Assembly: GCA_963712745.1 (NCBI GenBank)
Contig: CAVQJC010000020.1
Coordinates: 64,001-128,000 of the forward strand
Direction: 5' to 3'
Source of the DNA: an uncultured Chloroflexia bacterium
GTDB lineage: Bacteria > Chloroflexota > Limnocylindria > Limnocylindrales > CSP1-4
Length of the DNA: 64,000 bases
Below are positions 3,439 to 17,384 of the stretch, in pieces. The position numbers and the translations under genes were made by a program. Numbering within the stretch: the stretch's first letter is position 1; every line of letters begins with the position of its first letter. Under the pieces are notes generated by a model, which ran no database searches, had not been told where the DNA came from, and saw nothing but the letters and a program-made list of their open reading frames with translations.

Positions 3439-4196
3439 TTGATCGCCAAGAAGGCACGCGTGCTCGTCATCGGCCGCCAAGCCCGGCAACGGCCGCCCGG
3501 GCTTCCCGAGACGGCCACGGGTGCCAGCTACGTGATGGCCGACGACATCGGGGCCGCTAGGGCCAACCTCGAAGACTGCGACGTCGTGTTCCACTACGGG
3601 CCTCCACTGGAATCGCTCGAGTCGACTTGGCACGCCGCCAGGCGATTGCGTTGGCTGCACATCGGTGCCGTGGGGGTCGAACGGGCGCTCTTTCCTGAAC
3701 TCATCAGGAGCGACGTGACAGTCACCAACAGCCGCGGCGTCTTCGACGCTCCGCTCTCCGAGTACGTACTGGCGCTGATGCTCGCGCTGGTCAAGGACGT
3801 GCCGGGGACTGTTCGGGCTCAGGCCGCACGCCGATGGCACCCTCGCGTCCTCGGGTCGTTGTCTGGCGGACGGGTAGTCATCCTGGGTGCTGGCACGGTG
3901 GCACGGGCAGCGGGATGGCTGCTCCGATCGATCGGCCTCGAGGTCACGCTCGTGGCGCGCTCCGGCCGTGAAGGCGAGCCCGGCGAAGGCTGGATCCATG
4001 CCGCCAGCGACCTGCATCGCCTGCTTCCGGCTGCCGATTGGCTCGTCATCGCCGCGCCCCTCACGGCTGAGACCAGAGGTCTCATCGGTGCCCGTGAGCT
4101 CGAGGCACTGCCTCGCGGAGCACGCCTCGTCAACGTCGGTCGCGGCCCGATCGTCGTCGAGGAGGCCCTCATCAGGGCCGTAGATTCGGGACGAGA
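3439..4196 (+). pseudogene. D-2-hydroxyacid dehydrogenase, C-terminally truncated
   Basis: GAGTVA Rossmann motif, PLTAET and VNVGRG are present. Homology ends at VDSGR where the convergent gene's stop begins; the ALDV/EPL/TPH catalytic segment is absent. TTG start after GGGAG. Confidence 0.75.
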
Positions 4197-5006
4197 TCAG
4201 GCGATGAGCAGGATGTGGTTCGGGTCGATCAGCTCCCGGATGAGGCGGACCTGGTCTGTCGTCGGCGCCTCGGTGGTCGGGCAGTCTTCGGGTATCAGGG
4301 GGCGGAAGCTCATGGCGTCGAGCACCTGCTCCAGTTCGACGCCGGGATGGACCGAGAGAAGCTGCATCTCCTTCGTCTCGGCGTCGAACCCGAACACGGC
4401 CTTGTCGGTGATGACGCGCCAGGGCCCGCCCGGATCCATCCCCAGCTGCTCGCGAGAATCCCCGCCATCGAGGTGCCCCACACTGGTGATGAAGTCGACG
4501 CGCTCCACGAAGGTCCGCTTGCGCAGGTCGGTGATCACGATGGGTCGCTTGACGTAGGCGAAGTGGTCGGTCTGGGCGAGGCATCCCACGAGCCGGACCT
4601 TGGGCTTCCGATAGTCGCCGATGGCGGTGATGTTCAGGTTGCCGAAGCGGTCGATCTGGGGAGCCGAGTCGAACGACACGTCGAACTGACGGCGCGCAAG
4701 CATGTCGCACTTGTCGCCCGTGTGGGCCATCTGGCTCGCACAGGGCCAGGTGGTCACATGGTGCTGCGTCAGTTCTGGAGGGATCCGCGTCAGGTCCGGG
4801 CTGAGGAGGTTGCCCCAGTAGATGGTGATGTCCGGGGCATGTGTCAGCTGCGCCAGCCTGGCTGAGGCGATCGGGATCCCGACCGCCAGCGTGAACGCCC
4901 GTCCAGCAGTGCCGACTCCGACGAACGCGAGGTCGCCATCACGCAGCTCCCGGGAGGCAGCGACGACCAACAACTCGTTGAGGGTGTAATCGTCCGCGTA
5001 GGCCAT
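4197..5006 (-). CDS. Family I CoA-transferase-fold beta subunit (GctB/IpdB-like)
   Basis: AASRELRDG..FVGVG, THAPD, QIDRFGNLN, FVERVDFITS; canonical YESG Glu absent. Confidence 0.85.
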   Translation of the reverse strand: MAYADDYTLNELLVVAASRELRDGDLAFVGVGTAGRAFTLAVGIPIASARLAQLTHAPDITIYWGNLLSPDLTRIPPELTQHHVTTWPCASQMAHTGDKCDMLARRQFDVSFDSAPQIDRFGNLNITAIGDYRKPKVRLVGCLAQTDHFAYVKRPIVITDLRKRTFVERVDFITSVGHLDGGDSREQLGMDPGGPWRVITDKAVFGFDAETKEMQLLSVHPGVELEQVLDAMSFRPLIPEDCPTTEAPTTDQVRLIRELIDPNHILLIA

Positions 5007-5018
5007 CGGATTCGACTC

Positions 5019-5900
5019 CTAATGTACTGAGAGCTCGAAGATGCGCTGGGGAGTCAGCGCCTTTTGCAGGTACTCCCAGTGATCCTCGACGCCGTGGATG
5101 TACTTCTCCGCGTACTCGTCGAAGCGACCGCCCTTGGAGCACTCCTGGTAGTACTCCATGTGTGCGACGTCCTCGTCGTAGTAACCATCACAGCTGAGCG
5201 GATGCGCACCGAATGGCGCCTCGACGATGGCTTCGACCCACAGATGCGGGATGTAGGTCAGGTTGGGCCGTCGCAGGATCTCCTCATGCGGGACGATCTT
5301 CTCCACCGTGACGATCAGCCGGTTCGCCGCCTTGGCCATGATGGGATCGATGTCGTCGCTGTCCCGCTGCACCGGGAACTGCACGTTCCCGTACTCGTCC
5401 CCGACGTAGCCGTGGAGAACGGTGAAGTCGGCGACGGCTGCCTCTACGGCGTGATAGGTCTTGCCGGTGAAGGGGCAGACGATCTCGCGGATCTGCTCCT
5501 TGTTGTAGGCGGCCATCCCGGTGCCCATCAGGACATCGGTGGGCATGAACGAGATGCCCTGTGCAGCCGCGCGGAACCGCGCGATCATCGACGTCTCCGG
5601 GAAGTCACGAATCTCGATCGATCCCTGCTCGACGCCGCGCCGGAAGTTGTAGGCCATCCCGAATTGGAAGAGCCCCTCGTAGACCGCTTCCACCCGCTTC
5701 ACGGCGCCGGCACCGGCGAGCATGTCCATGGTGAAGCCCGCCGGGAAGGCCAGGATCCGAAGATCCGAAACACCCTGACGGATGAGCTCCCTGACGAACG
5801 CGGCCGGCGACCGCCTGATGATGCTGCCACCGACCGCGATCGTGCTGCCGGAAGGCACCAACCGGGCAGCCTCTGCCATCGTCACGAGCTTGCGTTTCAT
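5019..5900 (-). CDS. Family I CoA-transferase-fold alpha subunit (GctA/IpdA-like)
   Basis: IAVGG...RSP, DEYGNV, IVTVEKIV, APFGAHP..C.GYY. Confidence 0.87.
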   Translation of the reverse strand: MKRKLVTMAEAARLVPSGSTIAVGGSIIRRSPAAFVRELIRQGVSDLRILAFPAGFTMDMLAGAGAVKRVEAVYEGLFQFGMAYNFRRGVEQGSIEIRDFPETSMIARFRAAAQGISFMPTDVLMGTGMAAYNKEQIREIVCPFTGKTYHAVEAAVADFTVLHGYVGDEYGNVQFPVQRDSDDIDPIMAKAANRLIVTVEKIVPHEEILRRPNLTYIPHLWVEAIVEAPFGAHPLSCDGYYDEDVAHMEYYQECSKGGRFDEYAEKYIHGVEDHWEYLQKALTPQRIFELSVH

Positions 5901-6003
5901 CTTGGGCTGCCCCTCTCTCGAACCTCGCTCAATGTCTGATGCGTGAAGCCGTCGGAATCTGAGCGGAATGACGTGACGACCAGATTGCCATCAGTACACC
6001 TGC

Positions 6004-7194
6004 TCAGATGACGCCACTGGCCGCCAGCTCTTCCACGGCATCACTGTCGAGGCCCAGCCATTCAGCGTAGACCTCCCCGTTGTGCTGCCCCAGTAGCGGC
6101 GGCGGGCGGCGGATGCTCTGGCGCGATCGAGAGAAGTGGACGTTCAATCCATGCATCGGGAAGCGCCCTACTGTGGGGTGCTCGATCTCGACCAGCATGT
6201 CGCGATGCCTGACCTGGGGATCTTCGACCACTTCGTCGATGCTCGCCACCTTCGCGCATGGAAGTCCGGCCCCGCGAACCAGGTCCACGACCACGTCGGC
6301 GGGTCGTTCGATGACCCAGTCGGACAGCACGGCCTCGCTCGCTTCGACGTTGCGCATGCGAGCCTCGTTGGTCGCGAACCGCGGGTCCTGCAGGATCTCC
6401 GTCCGCCCGATGACCTCGAGCAGTCGCGGGAAGAGCGAATCAGTCGCAGACGCGATGTAGACCCATCGACCGTCCTGGGCCTCGAAGAGGTTCGACGGGG
6501 CAGCGTAACGATCCCGATTCCCTCGCCTGGTCATCTTCTTGCCGAGCAGCAGATACTCGGGGATAGCCGTGACGAGGAACGAGACGGCCGTGTCCAACAG
6601 TGCGACATCCACGTGCTGGCCTTCCCCGGTCTCGTCCCGGGCGCGCAGTGCCCCGAGGATGCCGAACGCGGCATAGATCCCGCTGGCGTAATCGACGAGG
6701 AACGTGCCGGTGGTTACCGGCGGCCTTTCCGGCTCGCCGGTCAGGTCCATGAGGCCGCCCATCGCCTGGGCGATCATGTCGAAGCACGCGTAGTCCGCGT
6801 ACGGCCCGTCCTGACCGAAACCGGAGATGCTTGCCATCACCAGGCTCGGGTTGATCTCCTTGAGTACCTCGTACCCGCAACCCATCTTCTCCATGGTGCC
6901 GGCTCGGAAGTTCTCCACCAGGACGTCGGCTTCCCGCACCAGTGACTTCAGGAGCTCGATACCCCTGGGGTTGCGGAAATCAAGCGTCACCCCACGCTTG
7001 TTCCGGTTCATCATCATGTAGTAGAGACTCTCGCCACCGACCTTGTCGCCCACGCTCCGGACGTCGTCGCCACGCCCGATACGCTCGACTTTGACCACGT
7101 CGGCACCCATGTCACCGAGCAACATGCAGCAGAACGGTCCGGCGAGCACACGGCTGATGTCCAGGACCTTGATACCTTCGAGTGGAGCCTGCAT
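6004..7194 (-). CDS. CaiB/BaiF family III CoA-transferase
   Basis: PLEGIKVLD, LAGPF, GADVVKVE, NRNKR, ENFR, SGFGQDGP, VDYASG, PPLLGQH. Confidence 0.93.
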   Translation of the reverse strand: MQAPLEGIKVLDISRVLAGPFCCMLLGDMGADVVKVERIGRGDDVRSVGDKVGGESLYYMMMNRNKRGVTLDFRNPRGIELLKSLVREADVLVENFRAGTMEKMGCGYEVLKEINPSLVMASISGFGQDGPYADYACFDMIAQAMGGLMDLTGEPERPPVTTGTFLVDYASGIYAAFGILGALRARDETGEGQHVDVALLDTAVSFLVTAIPEYLLLGKKMTRRGNRDRYAAPSNLFEAQDGRWVYIASATDSLFPRLLEVIGRTEILQDPRFATNEARMRNVEASEAVLSDWVIERPADVVVDLVRGAGLPCAKVASIDEVVEDPQVRHRDMLVEIEHPTVGRFPMHGLNVHFSRSRQSIRRPPPLLGQHNGEVYAEWLGLDSDAVEELAASGVI

Positions 7195-7444: not shown

Positions 7445-8503
7445 TCACCGGGGGCCGATCTCGACTGTGGCACCGTCTCTCGCGGAACTCTCCGCCGCCG
7501 CTTCGATCAGGCGTAGCGCTTCGATCCCGTCATGAGGCGATGGATCGGTCTCATGACCCTCCAGGATCGAGCGAGCGAAGGACTCAAGCTGACGCTTGAA
7601 CGGGTCGGTGTCCTCGAAGCGCGGGACTGCTGCCGTGCGCTCGTCTTCGAGGTACAGCTCGACCCGACTCCCGAGCCTGGAGAAGACGTACGGCGACCGG
7701 ATGCGGATGTGCCCCAGCTCGCCGTAGATATCCGTCCCTTCTGACCAGTCGCTGTGGACGTTGGTCGTGATCTCGAACGAGGCGAGTCCACTGCCCCTCG
7801 CGATCCCGGCGGTGCCATGCCAGGTATGGTCTCCATCGACCGACGAGTGGCGGGCACTGAGCCAGGCCACGTCCCCCGCCAGATAGCGCAGCCCATCGAA
7901 CAGGTGGGCGCCGTGGGTGAGCAGACGGTAGCGCTCGGCATCACTCTTCGCCTCCTCCTCGACCCGACGCACAGCCTCATCGACCACGACGGGCGGGAAC
8001 AAGGTGCGCTGCAGGCCCGCCCTCGACGCGGCCATGACGCGATACCACGTCTGCACGCTGAGGATCCGGCCGATGCGCGCGACATTGGCTCTTGCGAACT
8101 CGACTGCCGGATCGTGGCGCTTCATGCAACCGGTCTGGAGACGGAGCCCACGATCGCGTGCGGCGTCCGCGAGCCGCTGCGCCTCTGCTGCGGTCATGGC
8201 AAGCGGCTTCTCCATGAGCACGTGTTTGCCTGCTTCCAAGGCATGGAGCCCGAGGGGTAGATGGAACCGGTCGGGCACGGCGATCAGGACCGCATCGAGA
8301 TCCAACGCCAGCAGCTCATCGGTATCAGTGAATGCGTCGACGCCATGGCGCGCACCCACCGCGGTGACAAGCTCCGAGGACGGGTCGCTGATGGCGACGA
8401 GCCGGATACCCGCCGCCTTGGCTGTGGCAGGCAGGTGCGCGACCTGGGCGATGCGCCCGGCGCCGATCACACCAAGACGGATGCGATCGTTCGTGACACT
8501 CAC
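7445..8503 (-). CDS. Gfo/Idh/MocA oxidoreductase
   Basis: GVIGAGRIA, GKHVLMEKP, HLFD. Confidence 0.9.
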   Translation of the reverse strand: MSVTNDRIRLGVIGAGRIAQVAHLPATAKAAGIRLVAISDPSSELVTAVGARHGVDAFTDTDELLALDLDAVLIAVPDRFHLPLGLHALEAGKHVLMEKPLAMTAAEAQRLADAARDRGLRLQTGCMKRHDPAVEFARANVARIGRILSVQTWYRVMAASRAGLQRTLFPPVVVDEAVRRVEEEAKSDAERYRLLTHGAHLFDGLRYLAGDVAWLSARHSSVDGDHTWHGTAGIARGSGLASFEITTNVHSDWSEGTDIYGELGHIRIRSPYVFSRLGSRVELYLEDERTAAVPRFEDTDPFKRQLESFARSILEGHETDPSPHDGIEALRLIEAAAESSARDGATVEIGPR

Positions 8504-9510
8504 GGGTGGCCTCCGTTCTCAGGCTCTGAACTTGCCAGGAGCGCTGCACCGGTGGCCGCTGCGAACGGCCCGATGATGTCCCGACGCAGTGGTGGCAACT
8601 GGCGCTCGCGGGCATAGGGCCAGCGGCTCCGCAATTCCCGTTCAGCGTGCGGCAGGAGCCAAGCGCCCGCGGCGTGCCCGAAGCCACCGGAGATGAGGAC
8701 GATGCCGGGATCAAGCGCCACGCACAACGTGAGGATGGCGCGGCCGAGCATGGCTCCGCCATGCGCCAGCAGGCCCGCGGCCCAGGGGTCACCACCCCCG
8801 GCTGCAGTGACGATCGCACGGGCCGAGTACGGCTGGGATGCACCGATGGCTGTCAGACGGGCCTGCGAGTCCGGCGGGGGCGGCGTCAGCAGCGCCGACT
8901 CGGCTACCCCGCGACCCGACGCGAACTGCTCAACGCAGCCCGTTGCTCCGCACAGGCAGATGCGCTGATCGGCAAAGTCCACCGCCACGTGTCCGAATTC
9001 GGCTGCGTAGCCGTTCTCCCCGAGGACGATCCTGTCGCCCACCATGATCGACCCGCCGATACCGGTTCCGAGCGCAAGCAGTAGCGAAACCCGGGGCTGG
9101 CTTCCGGCACGTTCACCGTCCACTCCGTCGCCCATCCGAGTCACCAGCCGCATGTGACCGTAGAGCGCAGCGTTGGCGTCGTTGACCACGATCACCCTAC
9201 GCCCGAGTCGGGCCGCCAATCGTGGTCCCAGGTCGAGATCGACGGCGCGGAGCGTGGGCGAACGGACCAGTGTGGAACGGTCCCTGCTTACGAGACCCGC
9301 GACCGCGACGCCGAACGCGCTCACGTCGGCAGCATCCAGCGCGTGTTCGGCCAGCAGTGCTCTGGTGGCTGCGAGCACGATGTCCGTCAGTTCATCGGCT
9401 TGCCTGTCGATGTGCTCGGCCCAGGACCGTCCGAGCATCCTGCCAGCCTCGTCGACGAGCGTGACCGCACACTTCGTGCCACCGACATCGACACCCACGA
9501 AGTAGGTCAT
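8500..9510 (-). CDS. ROK family sugar kinase
   Basis: GVDVGGTK, NDANAA, GTGIGG, EFGH, CLCGATGCVE; ATGA overlap with the upstream gene. Confidence 0.9.
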   Translation of the reverse strand: MTYFVGVDVGGTKCAVTLVDEAGRMLGRSWAEHIDRQADELTDIVLAATRALLAEHALDAADVSAFGVAVAGLVSRDRSTLVRSPTLRAVDLDLGPRLAARLGRRVIVVNDANAALYGHMRLVTRMGDGVDGERAGSQPRVSLLLALGTGIGGSIMVGDRIVLGENGYAAEFGHVAVDFADQRICLCGATGCVEQFASGRGVAESALLTPPPPDSQARLTAIGASQPYSARAIVTAAGGGDPWAAGLLAHGGAMLGRAILTLCVALDPGIVLISGGFGHAAGAWLLPHAERELRSRWPYARERQLPPLRRDIIGPFAAATGAALLASSEPENGGHP

Positions 9511-10331
9511 CTGATCGGGACCGCGTCTGCAGCCTGCTGAGCAAGGAACTCCTGGACCGTCGAGCGTGCCAGGGCCGCGTACACGGCCGGGTCGGCGTCG
9601 CGAGACGGCAACTCCGAAAGGCGCGACCCAGATATGCGTCGGTGCCATTCATGAGCCACCGCGCGAGGGTGCAACGGATCGTTCCGCGCCGCGACGATCA
9701 GCGACGCCGGCGGGTGCGGGAAGCTCTCGTCGGGCGTGAAGGCGGTCCAGGTCGCACCCTCGGCGAGCCTCAGGGCGCGTTCGGCGGCCTGAGCGGAGGT
9801 CACCTTGTCGCGGAGACTGGCCGCCGCCCGCGCCGAAGCCGCGGTGACCTCCCGGTACTCGTCACTGGCGAGCAATCGGCTGAGGGCATGCCTCGGATCC
9901 TCACGCAGGTAGGCCGCGATCGACGCATTGACGCGAAGGTGCTGAGCCGGCGCGGATCCGTGGGCGGGACGGATGAAGACGGCTGCCACGATGTCGAGGG
10001 AGGCGTGTCGTACGAGCTCCAGGGCCACGGTCGCCCCAAGCGAGATGCCCAGCACGAGCAGGCGCCTGGAGCCCAGGCCCAACTGCTGGATGAGTGCCTC
10101 CACATCAGCACCGAGCTGAGTCGGCGTGAAGTCCTCCGGTTCTCCGAGGAACTCGGTCTCACCATGGCCGCGCAGGTCGGGAGCGAGCAGGCCGGCCTGA
10201 GGCACGTCGAAGCCTTCGAGATACATGCGTGGCTGGTCCCTGCTGGCGCTGAGACCGTGCAGGGCAACGACCAGTCCGGATCGATCCTCTCCCAGCAGGG
10301 TGAACGCGGCAGCGTCGACGTATCCGGACAC
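9507..10331 (-). CDS. Alpha/beta-fold hydrolase
   Basis: LHG, PDLRGHG, GISLG nucleophile elbow, DPLHP. Confidence 0.8.
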   Translation of the reverse strand: MSGYVDAAAFTLLGEDRSGLVVALHGLSASRDQPRMYLEGFDVPQAGLLAPDLRGHGETEFLGEPEDFTPTQLGADVEALIQQLGLGSRRLLVLGISLGATVALELVRHASLDIVAAVFIRPAHGSAPAQHLRVNASIAAYLREDPRHALSRLLASDEYREVTAASARAAASLRDKVTSAQAAERALRLAEGATWTAFTPDESFPHPPASLIVAARNDPLHPRAVAHEWHRRISGSRLSELPSRDADPAVYAALARSTVQEFLAQQAADAVPIR

Positions 10332-10443: not shown

Positions 10444-11414
10444 TCATCCACGTCGGTCGCTTCCATCGAGCAAGGACACGACCTCGCTCCGGGTCGGCAT
10501 CGCGGTCGAACAGGCTCGACGAGACGCCACGATGGCGCCAGCTGCGCTGGCGAAACGAAGCATCTCCGTGAGGTCAAGGCCGGAGAGTAGGCCATGACAG
10601 AGCGCGCCGCCGAAACCATCGCCCGCCCCCAGTCCATTGACCACGTCGATCGGTAGCGCAGGCATGGCGACCCGGCGCGTCCGGGTCTTGGCCAGGACCC
10701 CAGCCGGACCCAACTTGATGATCGCGAGCTCGACCCCTGCCGCCAGCAAGGCGTCGGCGGCCCGGTCGGGTTCCGACTCCCCGAGTACCACCTCACACTC
10801 ACCGAGGTTCCCGACCACCACGGTCACCCGACCTAGTGCCCGACGGCCCTCGGCTCGCGCCCGGTTCGGGGAATCCCAGAAGGTCGGGCGATAGTCGAGA
10901 TCGAGCACCGTGAAGCCCGAGCGGCCCCTGGCGCGCCAGGCGGCATGGTGGGCCGCGCGACTTGGATCTCGTGACAACCCCGATAATGTCGCCCAGTACA
11001 CCCCGGCTGCAGCGATCGCATCAAGGTCCAGGTCACTCGCCTCGATCAGCAGGTCGGGAGGATCTGGCTGCGGAAGAAGTAGAGCGGGAACTCGTCTGGA
11101 GGGAAGAGCTCGCAGAAGGCCAGCGTCGTGGTCGTGCCAGGAACCTCGGAGACGAAGTGGTCGAGGACCCCGAGGCGTCGGAGTTCGCGATGGACGAAGG
11201 ACGCGAATGGATCGGTCCCGGTTCGCGTGATGACCGCCGCCCGGTAGCCGAGACGCGCAGCCGCGACAGCAACGTTGGTCGGACTCCCGCCGAGGTACCG
11301 ATGGAATGACTCGACACGGTCCAGCGCGATGCCGTCATGGTCGGGATACAGATCGATGCCGACGCGGCCGATGGCCAGGACATCGAGCGGCGTTCGCGTA
11401 GTGGATCCAGCCAT
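10444..11414 (-). pseudogene. iolC: 5-dehydro-2-deoxygluconokinase (PfkB family), 1-nt frameshift near 11067
   Basis: N-half GRVGIDLYP/LGGSPTNVA/PPDEFPLYF and C-half DLDYRP/NGLGAGDGF lie in different frames; restoring one C gives a continuous RSPDPPDLLIE sequence. Confidence 0.85.
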
Positions 11415-11608
11415 CTATCTACCCCGATTCCGTACCTACGCTCGCTTCGAGCGGAGACCGGGCCTGCCCGTCTGTGACACCATGGAGCGATGCGAAGCGG
11501 GTACTACAAGGCCAATCACGCTGCTCCCATCCCGGGCCGCATCCCCAGGCAGCGGCTGCCCCGGCCGCGGGGATGGGCTGTGCCGTTGCGAGAGACTGTG
11601 GGTATGCG

Positions 11609-12349
11609 ATGAATGACATCGAGCAGATGAATGACATCGCCGCACTGGCCTTCGACACGGGGGGCACGGTCTTCGACTGGCATTCCGCGGTGCATGAAGG
11701 TTTCAAGCGACAGGGTGAGCTTCGCCACGTCGACGCGGATTGGCCTGCGCTGACCAAGACCTGGCGTCGGCTGTCGACCGGCATGGTCCATGCAGGTCTC
11801 CCACAGCAGGGCGGGCGCGCGACCCTGGACATGGATGACGTGCTGGCGGTGACGCTGGGGGCCACGCTCGAAGAACACGCCGTCACGGGCTTCGGGCCTG
11901 ACGATCTTTCGCAGCTCACGCTCGCATGGCGAGCGATGGCGGCGTGGCCAGACGTGATCAACGCGCTGCCCTGCCTGCGGCAGCGTTTCGTCGTCTCCCC
12001 GTTCACTATCCTCACCACGGCGCTGGTGATCGAAGCGTCGCGTCGCTCGGGGCTGACATGGGATGCGGTCATCTCATGCGAGATGATCGGCGTGTACAAG
12101 ACACATCGCACGACCTACGAGACGGTCGCCCGCTGGCTGGATCTGTCGCCCCATGAGATCATGCTGGTCTCGACGCACAACGATGACATCGAGGCCGCGC
12201 GAGCCTCTGGCATGCGCACGGCCTTCGTGTACCGGCCTGACGAGTGGTGGGACATCCCATCGCTCGATCCCGAACCCGGCGACGCGGCCGAGCTGGTGGC
12301 CGCCGACCTGAACGATCTTGCCCGCCAGCTGGGGCTGGATCCACCCTGA
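11609..12349 (+). CDS. Haloacid dehalogenase type II (HAD)
   Basis: FDTGGTVFDW, AWPD, GVYK, H..D..AA..GM.TAFV.RP; start at 11609 or 11627. Confidence 0.87.
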   Translation: MNDIEQMNDIAALAFDTGGTVFDWHSAVHEGFKRQGELRHVDADWPALTKTWRRLSTGMVHAGLPQQGGRATLDMDDVLAVTLGATLEEHAVTGFGPDDLSQLTLAWRAMAAWPDVINALPCLRQRFVVSPFTILTTALVIEASRRSGLTWDAVISCEMIGVYKTHRTTYETVARWLDLSPHEIMLVSTHNDDIEAARASGMRTAFVYRPDEWWDIPSLDPEPGDAAELVAADLNDLARQLGLDPP

Positions 12350-12408
12350 ACTCGGGCTGCGCAGCAAACCCTTGCACGGACCCCTGCTGCGGGGCATCGC
12401 GATGACGG

Positions 12409-13986
12409 TCACGTGGCGCGCCTTGGGCTGACGGCGGCATCGCCGTCCTTCGTCTTGGTCGTGGTGCCGGCCTCCGTGGCGAGTGCGTGCACGACCTTCT
12501 TGGTGTTCGTGTAGAGCGCACGATAGAGCTGATAGTTGGGTTCGTATCGCTCCGACCGCCGTGGGTCCGGCTCGACGCGATCGACGATGCGAACCCATGA
12601 GTGGCCGTCCCCGGAACCCTCATCGAGGAGGCCGACCGCAGTCGCTGCCAGGTACGCATCGCCATAGGCGGCCCCGGTCGAACGATCCGGTATCTCCTGT
12701 ACCAGCCCCGTCACATCAGAGACGATCTCCAGCCAGAGACGGCTGGCGGTGCCGCCACCGACGGCGACCGTTCGCCGAGGAACCGTGCCGCTATCGATCA
12801 TCGTCTCGAGATTGTGGCGGATGCCGAACGCCGTACCCTCGAGGATGGCTCGGTACACGTCCCCACGACGATGCGACAGACTCAAGCCAGCGATGACGCC
12901 GCGGGCCTTGGCGTCGTTGAACGGGCTCCGCTCCCCGCTGAAGTACGGCAGGAGGAGGAGGCCGCGAGCGCCCAGCGTCAATTCCTCGGCTTCGAGCGAC
13001 AGCTGCTCGTACGCCGCACCAGCGTCGAGAGCCCCACCGATGGGGAATTCGCGGGCGAACTGCTCGCGACACCAAGTCGTGATCGAACCGCTCGTCGAGA
13101 GCGCCGCGGTCAGCACGTACTCGTCAGGCCACGAACCGCGTGTGACCCACAATGGCCTGGCGGTCTGAAAGCCGTCGAGCACCAGGACGAGCGCAGACGT
13201 GCTGCCGTAGGAGAGCATCAGGTCGCCCGATCGGATGACGCCGGCGCCGACGGCCTCGGCCGCACCGTCCGTCGTCCCGGCCAGGACTGGCGTCCCGGCT
13301 GGGATGCCAGTGGCAGCGGCTGCGCTGCGCGTCACCGGACCGACCACCTCGCTCGGCCAGCGTAGCGGCGGTAGCAGGTCGGCCCGAACCAAGCCGTCGG
13401 CAAACCTGAGGTCCCAACGGGCTCGGCGCAGATCGTAGAACGGAGCGAAGTACGAGGCGTTGTGATGATCGGTCGAGTATTCGCCTGTCAGCCGCAGAAC
13501 GAGGTACCCGGCCGCCGTCATCAGCCTGGAGGTCCGGCTCATCACATCCGGCTCATTCTCGATCAGCCACATGATCTTCGGTCCAGCCGCCTGACTCGTC
13601 ATGTGCGTGCCGCTCAGACGAGCGATGGCGGCTCTGCGGCCGTGCTCGAGCCTTGTCAACTGGTCGTCGGCCCGGTTGTCAGCGCCGTACAGGATGGCCG
13701 GACGAAGCGGACGGCCGGACCGGTCAACGGGGAGCAGGCACGGACCGATGGCGCTCAGACCCACGGCCGCGATCTTGATCCCGGGGGGCAGGTTCTCCAT
13801 GAGCTGGCGACTGAGTGCCCTGAAGTCATGCCACCAGACAGCATCGGCGTCGTGCTCCAGCCTGCCCGGCCCAGGCATCGAGACACCGTGCTCGACACGC
13901 GCCTCCGCGAGGAGGACACCATCGGGGGTACACGCGACACCCTTTGAGCTGTATGTCCCGATGTCGATGCCGATCACTGCATCCAT
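12409..13986 (-). CDS. FGGY-family carbohydrate kinase
   Basis: GIDIGT, PKIMWL, LPYFSGERSP, RAILEG, VGGG. Confidence 0.92.
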   Translation of the reverse strand: MDAVIGIDIGTYSSKGVACTPDGVLLAEARVEHGVSMPGPGRLEHDADAVWWHDFRALSRQLMENLPPGIKIAAVGLSAIGPCLLPVDRSGRPLRPAILYGADNRADDQLTRLEHGRRAAIARLSGTHMTSQAAGPKIMWLIENEPDVMSRTSRLMTAAGYLVLRLTGEYSTDHHNASYFAPFYDLRRARWDLRFADGLVRADLLPPLRWPSEVVGPVTRSAAAATGIPAGTPVLAGTTDGAAEAVGAGVIRSGDLMLSYGSTSALVLVLDGFQTARPLWVTRGSWPDEYVLTAALSTSGSITTWCREQFAREFPIGGALDAGAAYEQLSLEAEELTLGARGLLLLPYFSGERSPFNDAKARGVIAGLSLSHRRGDVYRAILEGTAFGIRHNLETMIDSGTVPRRTVAVGGGTASRLWLEIVSDVTGLVQEIPDRSTGAAYGDAYLAATAVGLLDEGSGDGHSWVRIVDRVEPDPRRSERYEPNYQLYRALYTNTKKVVHALATEAGTTTKTKDGDAAVSPRRAT

Positions 13987-14014
13987 GTGGCTGCCGCCTC
14001 CCAGGCTTGCAGGA

Positions 14015-15004
14015 CTAGCTCACGGGCTCGCCGAGGGTCCGCAACGCTGCGCGCACGAGGTCCGACTCGCCCGGCAGGTACTCATCGATGAGCACCTCCC
14101 CGAACGGGATCGGCGCCCACGCGCCGCCAAGCCGCTGTATGGGCGCATCGAGGTAGCCGAACGCCTCCTCTGCGACGGATGCGGCGATCTCACCGCCGAT
14201 CCCACCGAAGACCGGCGCCTCGTGAACGACCACGAGGTGGGCCGTCTTCACCACCGACTCGACGATGGTCTTGACGTCGAGCGGCAGGACCGTGCGGATG
14301 TCCACCACCTCCGCGCTGACGCCGCGGTTGGCGAGCGTCTCCGCCGCGCTGAGGGACCGATCGACCATGGCCCCCGAGGCCACGATGGTGACGTCATCTC
14401 CGCGACGCTTGACGTCGGCTCGGCCGATGGGCACGAGGAACTCGGCGTCTGGCACTTCGCCCTTCTTCCCGTAGGTCTGTTTGTGCTCGAGGAAGATGAC
14501 CGGATCGGGCGAGCGGATGGCTGACTTCAGCAATCCCAGGAGGTCATACGGCGTCGAGGCCATCACGATCGTCAGGCCGGGGACATTCGTGAGCCACGAC
14601 TCGACCGACTGCGTGTGCTGCGCTCCCCAACGTGCTCCGGCCCCATAGGTCATGCGGATCGTCAGCGGCGCACTGACCTCGCCGGCGGAAAGGAACCTGG
14701 CCTTCGCCGCCGAATTGACGATGCCGTCCATCGCGATGGTGGTGAAATCCGCGAACATGATCTCGAGGATCGGACGCATGCCCATCATCGCGGCGCCAAC
14801 GGCGATCCCGGCCAGCGCCAATTCGCTGATGGGTGTATCGAAGACCCGCTCGGGCCCGAATTCATCGAGGAGTCCACGCGACACCTTGAAGACTCCGCCC
14901 GGCTCCGCCACGTCCTCGCCGAAGAGGAAGACGCGTTCGTCCCGCTGCATCTCTTCCCGGATCGCGCGCTGCACGGCATCGCGGTTCGTGACCACACCCA
15001 TCAC
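14015..15004 (-). CDS. 2-oxoacid/acetoin dehydrogenase E1 beta subunit
   Basis: GEDV, DTPISE, EIMFADF, AQHTQS, PVIFLEHK, LDAPI; may start at the GTG/ATG overlap. Confidence 0.92.
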   Translation of the reverse strand: MMGVVTNRDAVQRAIREEMQRDERVFLFGEDVAEPGGVFKVSRGLLDEFGPERVFDTPISELALAGIAVGAAMMGMRPILEIMFADFTTIAMDGIVNSAAKARFLSAGEVSAPLTIRMTYGAGARWGAQHTQSVESWLTNVPGLTIVMASTPYDLLGLLKSAIRSPDPVIFLEHKQTYGKKGEVPDAEFLVPIGRADVKRRGDDVTIVASGAMVDRSLSAAETLANRGVSAEVVDIRTVLPLDVKTIVESVVKTAHLVVVHEAPVFGGIGGEIAASVAEEAFGYLDAPIQRLGGAWAPIPFGEVLIDEYLPGESDLVRAALRTLGEPVS

Positions 15005-16035
15005 GTGCCCTCCCGCGTGGCCTCGGCAGGCGCATACACGTCTCGGTAGAGCTCGGCCGGATCAGGTGTCGGACTCTCCTCGGCGAAGCGCACCGCCGCG
15101 GCGATCTCTTCGTCGACTTCACGCCCGATTCGCTCAGCCAGCTCGTCATCGAGCAGCTCGCGTCGCTGGAGTTCTCTCCGCAAGAGCGTGATCGGATCCT
15201 TCGCGAGCCAGGACTCGACCTCGCCCGCGTCGCGGCCTTCGGTCGGCGGATGACTGGATGAATGACCGCGCTGGCGATAGGTGATGCACTCGATGAGGGT
15301 GGGCCCCCCGGCTGATCTCGCGCGAGCGACGGCATCGGCCACCGCGTCATGGACCACCAGCACATCATTGCCATCGATGGTCGATCCCCCGAAGCCGTAG
15401 CCTTCAGCCCGCATCGACAGGCTGGGACCCGCGAAGTGCTTCTCGATGGGAGTGAACTCCGCGTAGCCGTTGTTCTCGATGATGTAGACGATCGGAAGGC
15501 GGAAGACCCCCGCGAAATTGAGGGCCTCATGGAAGTCCCCTCGCTGAGCTGCGCCGTCGCCGAAGAAGCAGACGGCGACACTATCGCGAGCCTGCATCTT
15601 GAACGCGAGCGCGGCTCCGGTCGCTACGGGGATCGAACCGCCCACGATCGCGCTGCCCAGCATCACGCCCGACGAGGGCGCGGCCATGTGGTGAGCAGTC
15701 GCCTTGCCGTTGGCGGCGCCGGTGGCCTTGCCCAGCATGCCTGCCAGGAAGTGGCGCGGCGAGACGCCCCTGACGAAGTAGGCGCTTCGCGTTCGAAGCG
15801 ACGGCAGGATGACGTCGTCGGGTCGCAAGCCATAGCAGGCTCCGACCCCGATGGCCTCCTGTCCCTGGCTACCGTGCAGTGACTCGACAACGACCCCCGT
15901 GGACCACAGTTCCTGCGCTCGATCCTCGTAGGCGCGAGTCAGGACCATCCAGCGGTACATCTTGAGGAGGTCAGCCTCGGTGAGTGCGTCGGATGGCCGC
16001 TGGCCGATCGCCGGAGGTCCTTCGTGTGCCGTCAT
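15001..16035 (-). CDS. 2-oxoacid/acetoin dehydrogenase E1 alpha subunit
   Basis: GQEA, TPP motif FFGDGA...ENN, TYR..GH. Confidence 0.92.
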   Translation of the reverse strand: MTAHEGPPAIGQRPSDALTEADLLKMYRWMVLTRAYEDRAQELWSTGVVVESLHGSQGQEAIGVGACYGLRPDDVILPSLRTRSAYFVRGVSPRHFLAGMLGKATGAANGKATAHHMAAPSSGVMLGSAIVGGSIPVATGAALAFKMQARDSVAVCFFGDGAAQRGDFHEALNFAGVFRLPIVYIIENNGYAEFTPIEKHFAGPSLSMRAEGYGFGGSTIDGNDVLVVHDAVADAVARARSAGGPTLIECITYRQRGHSSSHPPTEGRDAGEVESWLAKDPITLLRRELQRRELLDDELAERIGREVDEEIAAAVRFAEESPTPDPAELYRDVYAPAEATREGT

Positions 16036-17219
16036 CCGCCTTCTTCGCCCATCGCTTCGAGCCGGCGTTTGACGTCAGCAAGGAACGATACGGCGTCCGC
16101 CCCGTCGACCGCCCGATGGTCGTAGCTCAACGAGAGGTACATCAGTGTGCCGACCTCGACGGCCCCCGCGCGGACTACCGGGGCCTCCGCCACGCGACCC
16201 ATGCCCAGGATGGCGACCTCCGGCACGTTCACGATCGGCGTGAAGAACAGCGAGCCGTAGGTTCCCGAGTTGGTCAGCGTGAAGGTCGATCCGGTCAAGT
16301 CCTCGGGCTTGATCTCGTTGCCGCGAGCGGCCGAAGACAGACGCTCGATGGCCGACGCGAGCTCCGCCAGCGAGAGCCGGTCGGCGTCCTGGATGACCGG
16401 GACGACGAGCCCATCATCGCGGGCAACGGCCACTCCCAGGTTGATGTGCTGATGCCGGAAGAGCCGGTCCTCCTGCAGCGTCGCGTTGAGCGCCGGGAAG
16501 GCGACCAGGGCACGCGCCACAGCCCAGGCCACGAAGGCCGTGAAAGGCAGGCGCGAGGCCTGGCGGTGCGTCGCTACGGAGCTCATGTCGACATCGATGA
16601 CCGTGGTCACGTCGGCGACGGTTCGCCGACTCAACGCAAGGCGCTCCGCGATCCGCCTCCGAGTGCCGATGAGGGGAACCTCGGTGACTCCCGCGGCGGG
16701 TACCCCACGGTTCGATCCTGCTCTGGCGGCGGCCCGCACATCCGCTTCGGTGACAAGGCCACCCGCCCCGCTCCCGCCGACCTTGGCGATGTCGATACCG
16801 AGTTCGGTAGCAACCCGTCGAGCGGCCGGTGACGACGGTTGCCGGCGACCGCCGCCAGGCGATCGCGTCGGTGTGCTGTCACTCATGGCCGAGGCACTCT
16901 CCGGGCTCGGCGCGACCGGCGCTGCCTGCGAGTGCGAGCCACCGGTGGCCGCGGCAGGCTCGGTGGCTGGCAGCTCCTCGTCTTCGCCGGCGATGATGGC
17001 CAGGACGCTGCCGACCTCCGCATCGTCCCCGACCTGGGCCAGGACGCGGCGCAACACGCCCGAAGCCGGAGCCTCGACGTCCACGTTGGCCTTGTCGGTC
17101 TCGACGACCAGGATCGGTTCCCCCTCGTCGACCGCATCGCCTTCGTTCTTCAGCCACTCCACGACCTGCCCTGTCTCCATGTCCTGCGACAGACGTGGCA
17201 TCAACACCCGTTGACTCAC
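16032..17219 (-). CDS. Dihydrolipoamide acyltransferase E2
   Basis: Lipoyl ETDKA, E3-binding SPAARR..GSG.GG.V, DHRAVDG; GTG start after GAGGAG. Confidence 0.92.
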   Translation of the reverse strand: MSQRVLMPRLSQDMETGQVVEWLKNEGDAVDEGEPILVVETDKANVDVEAPASGVLRRVLAQVGDDAEVGSVLAIIAGEDEELPATEPAAATGGSHSQAAPVAPSPESASAMSDSTPTRSPGGGRRQPSSPAARRVATELGIDIAKVGGSGAGGLVTEADVRAAARAGSNRGVPAAGVTEVPLIGTRRRIAERLALSRRTVADVTTVIDVDMSSVATHRQASRLPFTAFVAWAVARALVAFPALNATLQEDRLFRHQHINLGVAVARDDGLVVPVIQDADRLSLAELASAIERLSSAARGNEIKPEDLTGSTFTLTNSGTYGSLFFTPIVNVPEVAILGMGRVAEAPVVRAGAVEVGTLMYLSLSYDHRAVDGADAVSFLADVKRRLEAMGEEGG

Positions 17220-17265
17220 CAGATGGACTCCTCGCTGCTCTCCGCCGACGCCATACCGCGCCAGC

Positions 17266-17330
17266 GCGCAAACGGTTCGCGAAACGTTTCTGGAAGTATA
17301 GCCCGAGGCCATTGGATGGTATAGGATGGC
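17266..17330. promoter_or_regulatory. Divergent promoters with tandem LacI-type operator
   Basis: GCGCAAACGGTTCGC plus the perfect palindrome GAAACGTTTC (17281-17290); -10-like TATACT (minus) and TAGGAT (plus). Confidence 0.6.
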
Positions 17331-17384
17331 CGGCGGAGGTTTGGGCATGGGCCCAGTCACTGGCAGTAGCCCAAGGAGGAGAAG

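Follow-up and report, generated by a model that had tools for sequence, protein, structure and literature searches.

The window analyzed here is a 64,000-nucleotide stretch of DNA from an uncultured Chloroflexia bacterium of the CSP1-4 lineage (GenBank assembly GCA_963712745.1, contig CAVQJC010000020.1, positions 64,001 to 128,000 of the forward strand); all positions given below are those of the window. It carries three co-directional minus-strand genes, which encode a family III coenzyme A (CoA)-transferase (referred to as CaiB), followed by the alpha and then the beta subunit of a protein pair with the class I CoA-transferase domain (Table 1). The CoA_transf_3 domain of CaiB is full length, since the PF02515 match covers positions 1 to 366 of 366 (444 bits). 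The gaps between the genes measure 103 bases (CaiB to alpha) and 12 bases (alpha to beta), and an AGGAG ribosome-binding site, located 8 to 12 nucleotides ahead of the beta ATG, overlaps the stop codon of alpha. No NCBIfam model was matched at its cut-off by CaiB, alpha, or beta, and the pair is thus outside every curated NCBIfam family. A first-pass annotation made from the DNA sequence had proposed that the catalytic Glu of the class I transferases was lost from beta, that a Glu in alpha had taken over, and that the pair is probably an IpdAB-like C-C hydrolase acting on a thioester made by CaiB.

Among solved structures, both subunits were most similar to the glutaconate CoA-transferase GctAB of Acidaminococcus fermentans (1poi). 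In a phmmer search of the PDB, alpha matched GctA (1poi_A) with an E value of 8.6e-37, followed by AibA (2.6e-29) and IpdA (5.9e-26), and beta matched GctB (1poi_B) with 5.1e-30, followed by IpdB (3.3e-18) and AibB (2e-11). Subunit lengths and gene order are also as in GctAB. The window beta differs from GctB by an insertion of approximately 11 residues near residues 30 to 41 and, above all, by the absence of Glu54 of the ESG motif, the residue to which the acyl/CoA intermediate of class I transferases is attached. In the pairwise HMMER alignment to 1poi_B, the Glu of the GctB motif ivESG is opposite a gap between Tyr63 and Trp64 of beta, whereas the alignment of a 20-sequence family profile places Glu54 opposite Gly65. 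Since the two alignments disagree, the position that stands in for the GctB Glu depends on the alignment used. The earlier assignment of codon 4815-4817 to a Trp was right (Trp64), but the stand-in is Gly65 or a gap and not strictly this Trp. The profile-based placement agrees with the correspondence between GctB Glu54 and IpdB Gly57 that is given in PMC5380842. Neither alignment has an acidic residue at the Glu54 site, and there is no Asp or Glu in the beta segment DITIYWGNLLSP or within beta residues 59 to 70. The proposal that beta lacks the canonical Glu, with no other beta Glu in its place, was therefore borne out by the pairwise and the profile alignments.

The counterpart of this loss is found in alpha. 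Glu102 of alpha is in the column of the Glu of the IpdA motif MDEG (6con_A and 6co6_A), which is occupied by Gln in GctA and by Gly in AibA. It is the residue pointed out in the first-pass annotation, which had quoted the IpdA motif in a form that matches the 6con_A alignment; the two sequence strings that it had given for alpha and beta do occur in these subunits. A comparison of 6coj_A with 6co6_A revealed a Glu-to-Ala change exactly at this column, and 6coj is entitled "IpdAB E105A COCHEA-CoA complex" in the PDB. The class I catalytic Glu is thus lost from beta, and a Glu is present at the column of IpdA Glu105. All 20 of the diverse orthologues compared, with identities as low as 51%, have Glu102, which is one of many invariant polar residues in a family whose mean column identity amounts to 68 to 69% over 20 sequences from several phyla.

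A protein search with alpha retrieved 407 relatives at an E value of ≤1e-10; every relative that has a name is called either "CoA transferase subunit A" or "glutaconate CoA-transferase subunit A." A locus scan with one genome per species yielded 78 loci from eight phyla, namely, Chloroflexota, NC10/Methylomirabilota, Actinomycetota, Spirochaetota, Bacillota, Planctomycetota, Acidobacteriota, and the Alpha-, Beta-, and Gammaproteobacteria. The closest loci are from Chloroflexota (90 to 92% identity), and the carriers include soil, gut, plant-associated, and groundwater bacteria. From these loci, 130 alpha-like and 127 beta-like open reading frames (ORFs) were extracted. A number of observations were made on these sequences. 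(i) The Glu102 column contained Glu in 105 alpha-like ORFs, His in 18, and another residue in 7. (ii) All 105 Glu-type alphas had an adjacent beta without the canonical Glu, in which the motifs IYW-GN, MM-GP, LLAGW, and QY-GV were found. (iii) The His-type alphas, with the motif EDYSHF that resembles MEDYSQD of GctA, had an adjacent beta in 16 cases, and all 16 of these betas retain F-E-S-G; the other 2 had no beta inside the distance limit used. (iv) The seven remaining alphas are extra or divergent copies that, by the same distance criterion, have no adjacent beta. (v) Of the betas lacking E[SN]G, 108 of 109 had no Asp or Glu at window columns 60 to 68. The same pattern was observed in a sample of 101 Actinomycetes genomes, 57 of which had a match (a tally that includes five unpublished genomes, on which nothing else reported here relies; the loci of three unpublished genomes were left out of the pairing counts). 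Here, 12 of 12 His-type alphas were paired with E[SAG]G betas, 10 of 10 IpdA-like alphas (REMDEGM, LELDEGM, or TEVDEAM) were paired with TD-GEA or SD-GEA betas, and one further Glu-type pair also lacked the beta Glu. Glu102 is thus part of a family-wide switch, in which a pair has either the alpha Glu or the beta Glu. The invariance of Glu102, together with this covariation without exception, indicates that the swap is more than a chance event.

The switch involves additional positions. Residues that are conserved to at least 93% in the Glu-type alphas and that differ from the His-type are Tyr74, Gly76, Asn85, Arg87, Arg88, Glu102, and Asp185, of which Arg87 (frequency 0.8), Glu102 (1.0), and Asp185 (1.0) are also found in IpdA-like sequences. 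The beta positions include Gln117 and Asp171, which also occur in IpdB-like sequences, and Ser114 and His148, which are specific to the class without Glu. We also searched beta for an acidic residue that might compensate class-wide for Glu54 and rejected all five candidates. Structural roles are suggested for Glu11 and Asp119, which all three classes conserve, and for the largely conserved Asp261. Asp171 is characteristic of the no-Glu and IpdB-like classes, with a frequency of 0.30 in ESG betas, and Asp109 is invariant solely in the clade of the window.

Several irregular gene copies were noted in the loci. Extra alpha-like ORFs (L025, 4918-5811; L031, 2228-2965; L043, 11959-12819; L056, 4259-5140; and L057, 6020-6856) are 26 to 31% identical, have neither Glu nor His at column 102, and lack a beta of their own. 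They adjoin His-type canonical pairs, form a clade of their own, and may be a third subunit. In L050 and L053, the alpha gene gave partial matches near 9001-9880 and no intact ORF; the same was seen for the CaiB gene of L001 near 8249. These broken genes may reflect frameshifts or assembly errors in metagenome-assembled genomes.

A phylogenetic tree of 70 alpha sequences was calculated with IQ-TREE (quick mode, LG+C20). The clade of the window comprises 18 rows, all with Glu, and has a support of 99 in the Shimodaira-Hasegawa-like approximate likelihood ratio test (SH-aLRT). A second Glu clade of 25 rows (support of 84) includes two secondary losses, to Asp and to Lys. The His-type sequences form a single clade (16 rows, support of 92), the extra alpha-like ORFs a small separate one, and the three IpdA-like rows another (support of 100), whose long branch joins a second long branch. 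The backbone of the tree is open.

Orthology with IpdAB was rejected, since the window pair is in a separate clade, alpha shares only 25 to 27% identity with IpdA chains, and the family profiles score GctAB higher (alpha profile, 1.1e-55 for GctA versus 1.2e-41 for IpdA; beta profile, 7.8e-43 for GctB versus 2e-26 for IpdB). The structural models gave a similar result. The AlphaFold2 models had predicted local distance difference test scores of 85.6 (alpha) and 79.5 (beta). In Foldseek searches, the query-based TM scores (TMq) of the alpha model were 0.88 for 1poi_A, 0.82 to 0.84 for the IpdA chains (0.84 for 6coj_A), and 0.78 for 5mzw_C, and those of the beta model were 0.78 for 1poi_B and 0.70 for 6con_B. 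The comparison with AlphaFold models that had been suggested earlier thus confirmed the GctAB fold and also matched IpdAB, but GctA and GctB were matched better than IpdA and IpdB. In the alpha model, Glu102 is predicted to open a helix (residues 102 to 114) that follows a strand (residues 96 to 100).

IpdAB, also known as ScdL1L2, is the COCHEA-CoA ring-C hydrolase of steroid catabolism (PDB 6co6, 6co9, 6coj, and 6con). It has in common with the window pair the two-subunit GctAB fold, a beta subunit without the transferase Glu, and an alpha Glu in the same column (Glu105), in addition to alpha Arg87 and Asp185 and beta Gln117 and Asp171. Its 2018 structure paper in PNAS reportedly describes Glu105 as the base in a hydration or a retro-Claisen cleavage. 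The differences extend beyond sequence identity and clade: the motif IYWGN of the window beta corresponds to TDGE in IpdB, and the window pair adjoins a family III transferase, thiamine enzymes, and sugar kinases and not steroid genes. To our knowledge, IpdAB, a hydrolase, and AibAB, a decarboxylase, are the only characterized enzymes of the GctAB fold that have moved beyond CoA transfer, and both are narrow in distribution and pathway. The context of IpdAB, as listed in Table 1 of PMC5380842, includes the crotonase EchA20, IpdC, IpdF, the thiolase FadA6, and acyl-CoA dehydrogenases. In the literature searched, IpdAB was found only in steroid papers, and no paper dealt with a module of a swapped pair and CaiB; neither a paper on the sugar-acid protein ApnO (PMC13753588) nor one on deoxyribonate catabolism (PMC6365646) involves these genes.

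A competent CoA-transferase is encoded beside the swapped pair in 72 of the 78 loci. A CaiB-like gene is present in 63 loci, in 44 of which it is no more than 300 bp away from the Glu-type pair, so that the adjacent CaiB seen in the window is indeed a conserved partner. Of the 15 loci without CaiB, 9 have a canonical His/ESG pair adjoining the Glu-type pair (e.g., L055, L058, L060, L064, and L073). These canonical pairs have the same family and gene order as the swapped ones, often directly adjoin them, and differ in the retained beta Glu, the alpha His, and a clade of their own; in the nine loci they appear to replace CaiB. This nonorthologous replacement of one transferase by another is the main reason why the swapped pair seems to be fed by a transferase and not to be one. 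The six loci with neither CaiB nor a canonical pair include L001, with its partial CaiB match, and L006 and L076, in which partial matches are at the contig end. Several loci contain two or three swapped pairs beside one CaiB, which fits distinct catalytic steps better than redundant transferases.

The genome of the window itself (4.2 Mb) contains only four PF02515 genes, a low number that argues against a chance adjacency of CaiB. It has five PF01144 matches, namely, those of the Glu-swapped pair, of a His-type pair at a distance of approximately 390 kb, and of a fused form located on a different contig. This fused class I gene is located approximately 2 kb from another family III CoA-transferase gene (G000:C5:333887-337962). 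The closest solved relative of the window CaiB is SUGCT, a succinate-hydroxymethylglutarate CoA-transferase (9br6_A, 1.2e-87), followed by YfdE and formyl-CoA transferases; the NCBIfam succinate-glutarate transferase model matches it below the cut-off. CaiB Asp168, in the motif VDYASG, is at least 97% conserved (76 rows) and may correspond to Asp169, the catalytic Asp of formyl-CoA transferase. The CaiB-type enzyme is presumed to supply the acyl-CoA substrate.

Table 1. Location of the CoA-transferase genes, key codons, and neighboring genes in the window
Feature	Positions	Strand	Match or basis
Family III (CaiB/Frc/SUGCT-like) CoA-transferase, 396 amino acids	6004-7194	-	PF02515, E value 5.7e-133
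Alpha subunit, 293 amino acids	5019-5900	-	PF01144 (CoA_trans), E value 2.7e-29
Beta subunit, 269 amino acids	4197-5006	-	PF01144 (CoA_trans), E value 1.8e-14
Codon of alpha Glu102, proposed catalytic base	5595-5597	-	Arithmetic from gene start
Codons of beta Trp64-Gly65, place of GctB Glu54	4812-4817	-	Alignments to GctB
GFO/IDH/MocA oxidoreductase, directly upstream of CaiB	7445-8503	-	PF01408, E value 8.1e-27
PfkB sugar kinase, split in two ORFs	10444-11414	-	Two PF00294 halves
FGGY carbohydrate kinase	12409-13986	-	PF00370, PF02782
Thiamine-dependent E1 beta	14015-15004	-	PF02779/PF02780
Thiamine-dependent E1 alpha	15001-16035	-	PF00676
Lipoyl E2 acyltransferase	16032-17360	-	PF00198 and PF00364

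To characterize the gene context, 29 ORFs located between positions 660 and 28722 of the window were scanned with Pfam. On the minus strand upstream of CaiB, the GFO/IDH/MocA oxidoreductase gene is followed by genes for a ROK protein, an alpha/beta hydrolase, and the split PfkB kinase; beyond an opposite-strand HAD hydrolase gene lie the genes for the FGGY kinase, E1 beta, E1 alpha, and the lipoyl E2. The oxidoreductase gene is syntenic in the four closest relatives (L001, L002, L050, and L053), and its product probably acts in the same pathway as CaiB. The ROK stop codon and the start of the oxidoreductase gene overlap by 4 bases (8500-8503), which suggests that the ROK, oxidoreductase, and possibly the CaiB-alpha-beta genes are cotranscribed. 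The frame of the PfkB gene changes near 11055-11070; its homologues are whole in L002 and L053, and the split is a real frameshift or an assembly indel. The E1 beta/E1 alpha/E2 set looks like the acetoin- or 2-oxoacid-dehydrogenase type, placed in a sugar cluster. Diverging on the plus strand from 17385 are genes for a sugar ABC transporter, an enolase-superfamily (MR_MLE) enzyme, and a second GFO oxidoreductase, followed by minus-strand genes for a short-chain dehydrogenase/reductase (SDR) and a LacI regulator. Downstream of beta, a xylose-isomerase-like TIM barrel gene and a truncated 2-hydroxyacid dehydrogenase gene converge on the trio. The product of the latter, a D-2-hydroxyacid dehydrogenase (3448-4155, plus strand), is approximately 88 C-terminal residues short in comparison with its L050 homologue, and the gene, probably a remnant in decay, is absent altogether from the relatives L002 and L053. 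No crotonase, thiolase, or acyl-CoA dehydrogenase domain was detected in the 29 ORFs, nor were steroid genes, which is in line with the earlier observation that none are nearby.

The carbohydrate-related character of the context recurs in the 78 loci, where sugar kinases, transporters for sugars and acids, and sugar regulators are among the neighbors of the pair. Thiamine enzymes were present in 43 loci (31 acetolactate-synthase-like and 12 E1/transketolase-like), kinases of the FGGY, PfkB, or Dak type in 38 (FGGY in 15), and a thiamine enzyme together with a kinase in 30. Regulators of the LacI, GntR, DeoR, or RpiR type were found in 42 loci, ABC or MFS transporters in 35, dehydrogenases/oxidoreductases (GFO, SDR, and others) in 27, TRAP transporters in 16, and MaoC proteins in 12. 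Steroid ring C/D genes, crotonases, thiolases, and acyl-CoA dehydrogenases did not recur across the 78 loci. Among 103 otherwise unclassified neighbor ORFs, every Pfam family was limited to 3 ORFs or fewer, and crotonase, thiolase, and acyl-CoA dehydrogenase were not among the 25 families listed for them. Characteristic arrangements include (i) a compact operon in Rhizobiales with the order alpha-beta-CaiB-TPP-Dak1-Dak2, TPP being the thiamine pyrophosphate enzyme (L032, L041, L044, L045, and L048), (ii) an operon in Lachnospiraceae with the order TRAP-E1alpha-E1beta-CaiB-alpha-beta-PfkB (L013, L015, L017, and L019), and (iii) the operon of L071, with TPP, a second pair, alpha-beta, FGGY, CaiB, and TRAP genes. 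In four Lachnospiraceae loci (L013, L014, L015, and L017; about 10900-16100), CaiB-alpha-beta is followed on the 3' side by genes for an HpaB-fold protein like 4-hydroxybutyryl-CoA dehydratase, an acetyl-CoA hydrolase/transferase-family protein, and an iron alcohol dehydrogenase, with a NifU-like protein in L014, L015, and L017, an arrangement that may be connected with the formation of crotonyl-CoA and butyrate. As for the thiamine enzyme, NCBIfam and the PDB returned only a generic likeness to acetolactate synthase or pyruvate oxidase. A pathway with a 2-hydroxyacyl-CoA lyase that recycles formyl-CoA was considered and found to be unsupported, since the scores of 2-hydroxyacyl-CoA lyase and oxalyl-CoA decarboxylase were far lower (2e-43 versus 2.4e-65). 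The context is thus of the carbohydrate type and not steroidal. The first-pass annotation had not seen the carbohydrate and sugar-acid setting to which these data point.

We give about an even chance to the reading that the pair is not a transferase but acts on the acyl-CoA made by CaiB, with alpha Glu102 as a base, a role assigned to this residue from sequence comparison. IpdAB from Rhodococcus jostii showed no CoA transfer in vitro, as stated in PMC5380842, and by this precedent we infer that the swapped pair is not a transferase either; the catalytic role of Glu102, the succession of the steps, and the kind of substrate are likewise inferred. The proposed sequence of events would be as follows. 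(i) The family III transferase, possibly through Asp168, would load an organic acid onto CoA, probably one that is hydroxylated and stems from a sugar, polyol, or sugar acid. (ii) The alpha/beta pair would bind this acyl-CoA in its inherited CoA site. (iii) Glu102 would act as a general base on the thioester-activated acyl part; most likely, water would be added or removed, the options being hydration/dehydration or a retro-Claisen C-C hydrolysis as in IpdAB. (iv) The products would pass to the thiamine-dependent enzyme encoded nearby, which would cleave or decarboxylate C-C bonds, and to the sugar kinase. CoA esters of sugar acids have a precedent in deoxyribonate catabolism, as described in PMC6365646. 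A relocated base would allow one of several reactions, namely, C-C hydrolysis, hydration/dehydration, isomerization, or decarboxylation, between which the data do not discriminate. A number of results weigh against this reading: (i) in both sequence and fold, the pair is nearer to a true transferase, GctAB, than to IpdAB; (ii) no transferase was found within 9 kb of the swapped pair in L010, L061, and L065; (iii) given the open backbone of the tree, the alpha Glu need not share its descent with that of IpdA and may have arisen once or several times; (iv) the His-type alphas form one clade, so that the covariation coincides with clade membership and may reflect one or few evolutionary events; and (v) the identities of the CaiB and alpha homologues to the window proteins are uncorrelated (rho of 0.19, P of 0.23, n of 44), which led us to drop strict coevolution of a CaiB-alpha module as an argument.

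Four more specific explanations were weighed against this background. According to one of them, the pair is a retro-Claisen C-C hydrolase of the IpdAB type: CaiB and a dehydrogenase would provide a beta-keto or enoyl acyl-CoA, which would be hydrated and split into an acid and a shorter acyl-CoA. The Glu arrangement shared with IpdAB, along with alpha Arg87 and Asp185 and beta Asp171, is consistent with it, as are the oxidoreductases, which are present in 27 loci and, in the window, immediately precede CaiB, and the splitting of CoA esters of 3-keto sugar acids in deoxyribonate catabolism (PMC6365646). We regard it as possible but doubtful, given that IpdAB is not an orthologue, that the neighbors include no recurring crotonase, thiolase, or acyl-CoA dehydrogenase, and that the minimal operons of the Rhizobiales have no constant dehydrogenase. 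A decarboxylation appears quite unlikely to us. In that case the pair would be a biotin-independent dicarboxylyl-CoA decarboxylase, whose mono-CoA ester substrate would come from a SUGCT-like dicarboxylate transferase, comparable to AibA/AibB, the 3-methylglutaconyl-CoA decarboxylase of Myxococcus xanthus (PDB 5mzw and others). AibAB also has a GctAB fold that gave up CoA transfer and lacks the beta Glu, and its activity, described in PMC7756340, illustrates that the fold can also decarboxylate; the similarity of the window CaiB to SUGCT and to the succinate-glutarate model, as well as the continuation of the Lachnospiraceae loci with genes of crotonyl-CoA formation (AbfD-like and AbfT-like), would also fit. 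Yet, the invariant alpha Glu has no counterpart in AibAB, whose alpha subunit has Gly at this column, and the Cys56 of AibB, studied by mutation according to PDB titles, seems, in an alignment judged by eye (5n01_D), to be opposite Asn66 of the window beta. AibAB is shorter (263 and 248 amino acids), scores lower, particularly for beta, and has a different context.

The pair might also still be a CoA-transferase, with its nucleophile moved to alpha; Glu102 would then form the acyl anhydride and the CoA thioester, and the enzyme would carry out a second CoA transfer in the pathway. GctAB as the best neighbor in sequence and fold and the database name of the homologues favor such an enzyme, and the three loci with no other transferase (L010, L061, and L065) would be self-sufficient. 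IpdAB, with the same arrangement, has no transferase activity according to PMC5380842, 72 of the 78 loci already encode a competent transferase, a canonical ESG pair substitutes for an absent CaiB, and there are up to three pairs per locus; we therefore consider a moved nucleophile unlikely. Lastly, loss of the canonical nucleophile could have left a catalytically dead pair that binds CoA esters as a carrier, regulator, or scaffold. The strong purifying conservation, with its invariant Glu102, and the tight operon-like arrangement make this very improbable.

Relocation of the Glu as such is already known from IpdAB, whereas the large clade, the partnership with a family III transferase, and the sugar-type context have not been described in the literature searched. 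With a likelihood that we place somewhat below even, the swapped pairs make up a novel enzyme class that processes acyl-CoA, as a hydratase, C-C hydrolase, or lyase, and that extends over at least eight phyla of bacteria, acting in an undescribed CoA-dependent route for the breakdown of sugar, polyol, or sugar-acid carboxylates that would consist of a transferase (family III or canonical class I), the swapped pair, a thiamine enzyme, and a ketose kinase. A number of implications can be derived. (i) The same Glu relocation marks a large and strongly conserved family, the members seen being all annotated as "CoA transferase subunit A/B." (ii) The rule of either an alpha Glu or a beta Glu provides a simple sequence test to distinguish true transferases from nontransferases in PF01144. 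(iii) The conserved module of transferase, swapped pair, thiamine enzyme, and sugar kinase points to a carbohydrate-related CoA pathway without a described counterpart, and it is carried by cultured bacteria, including Azospirillum, Microvirga, Pantoea, Cupriavidus pinatubonensis, Pedococcus, and Subtercola. (iv) If the swapped pairs do form such a class, IpdAB would be a steroid-specialized offshoot of a much larger group of enzymes.

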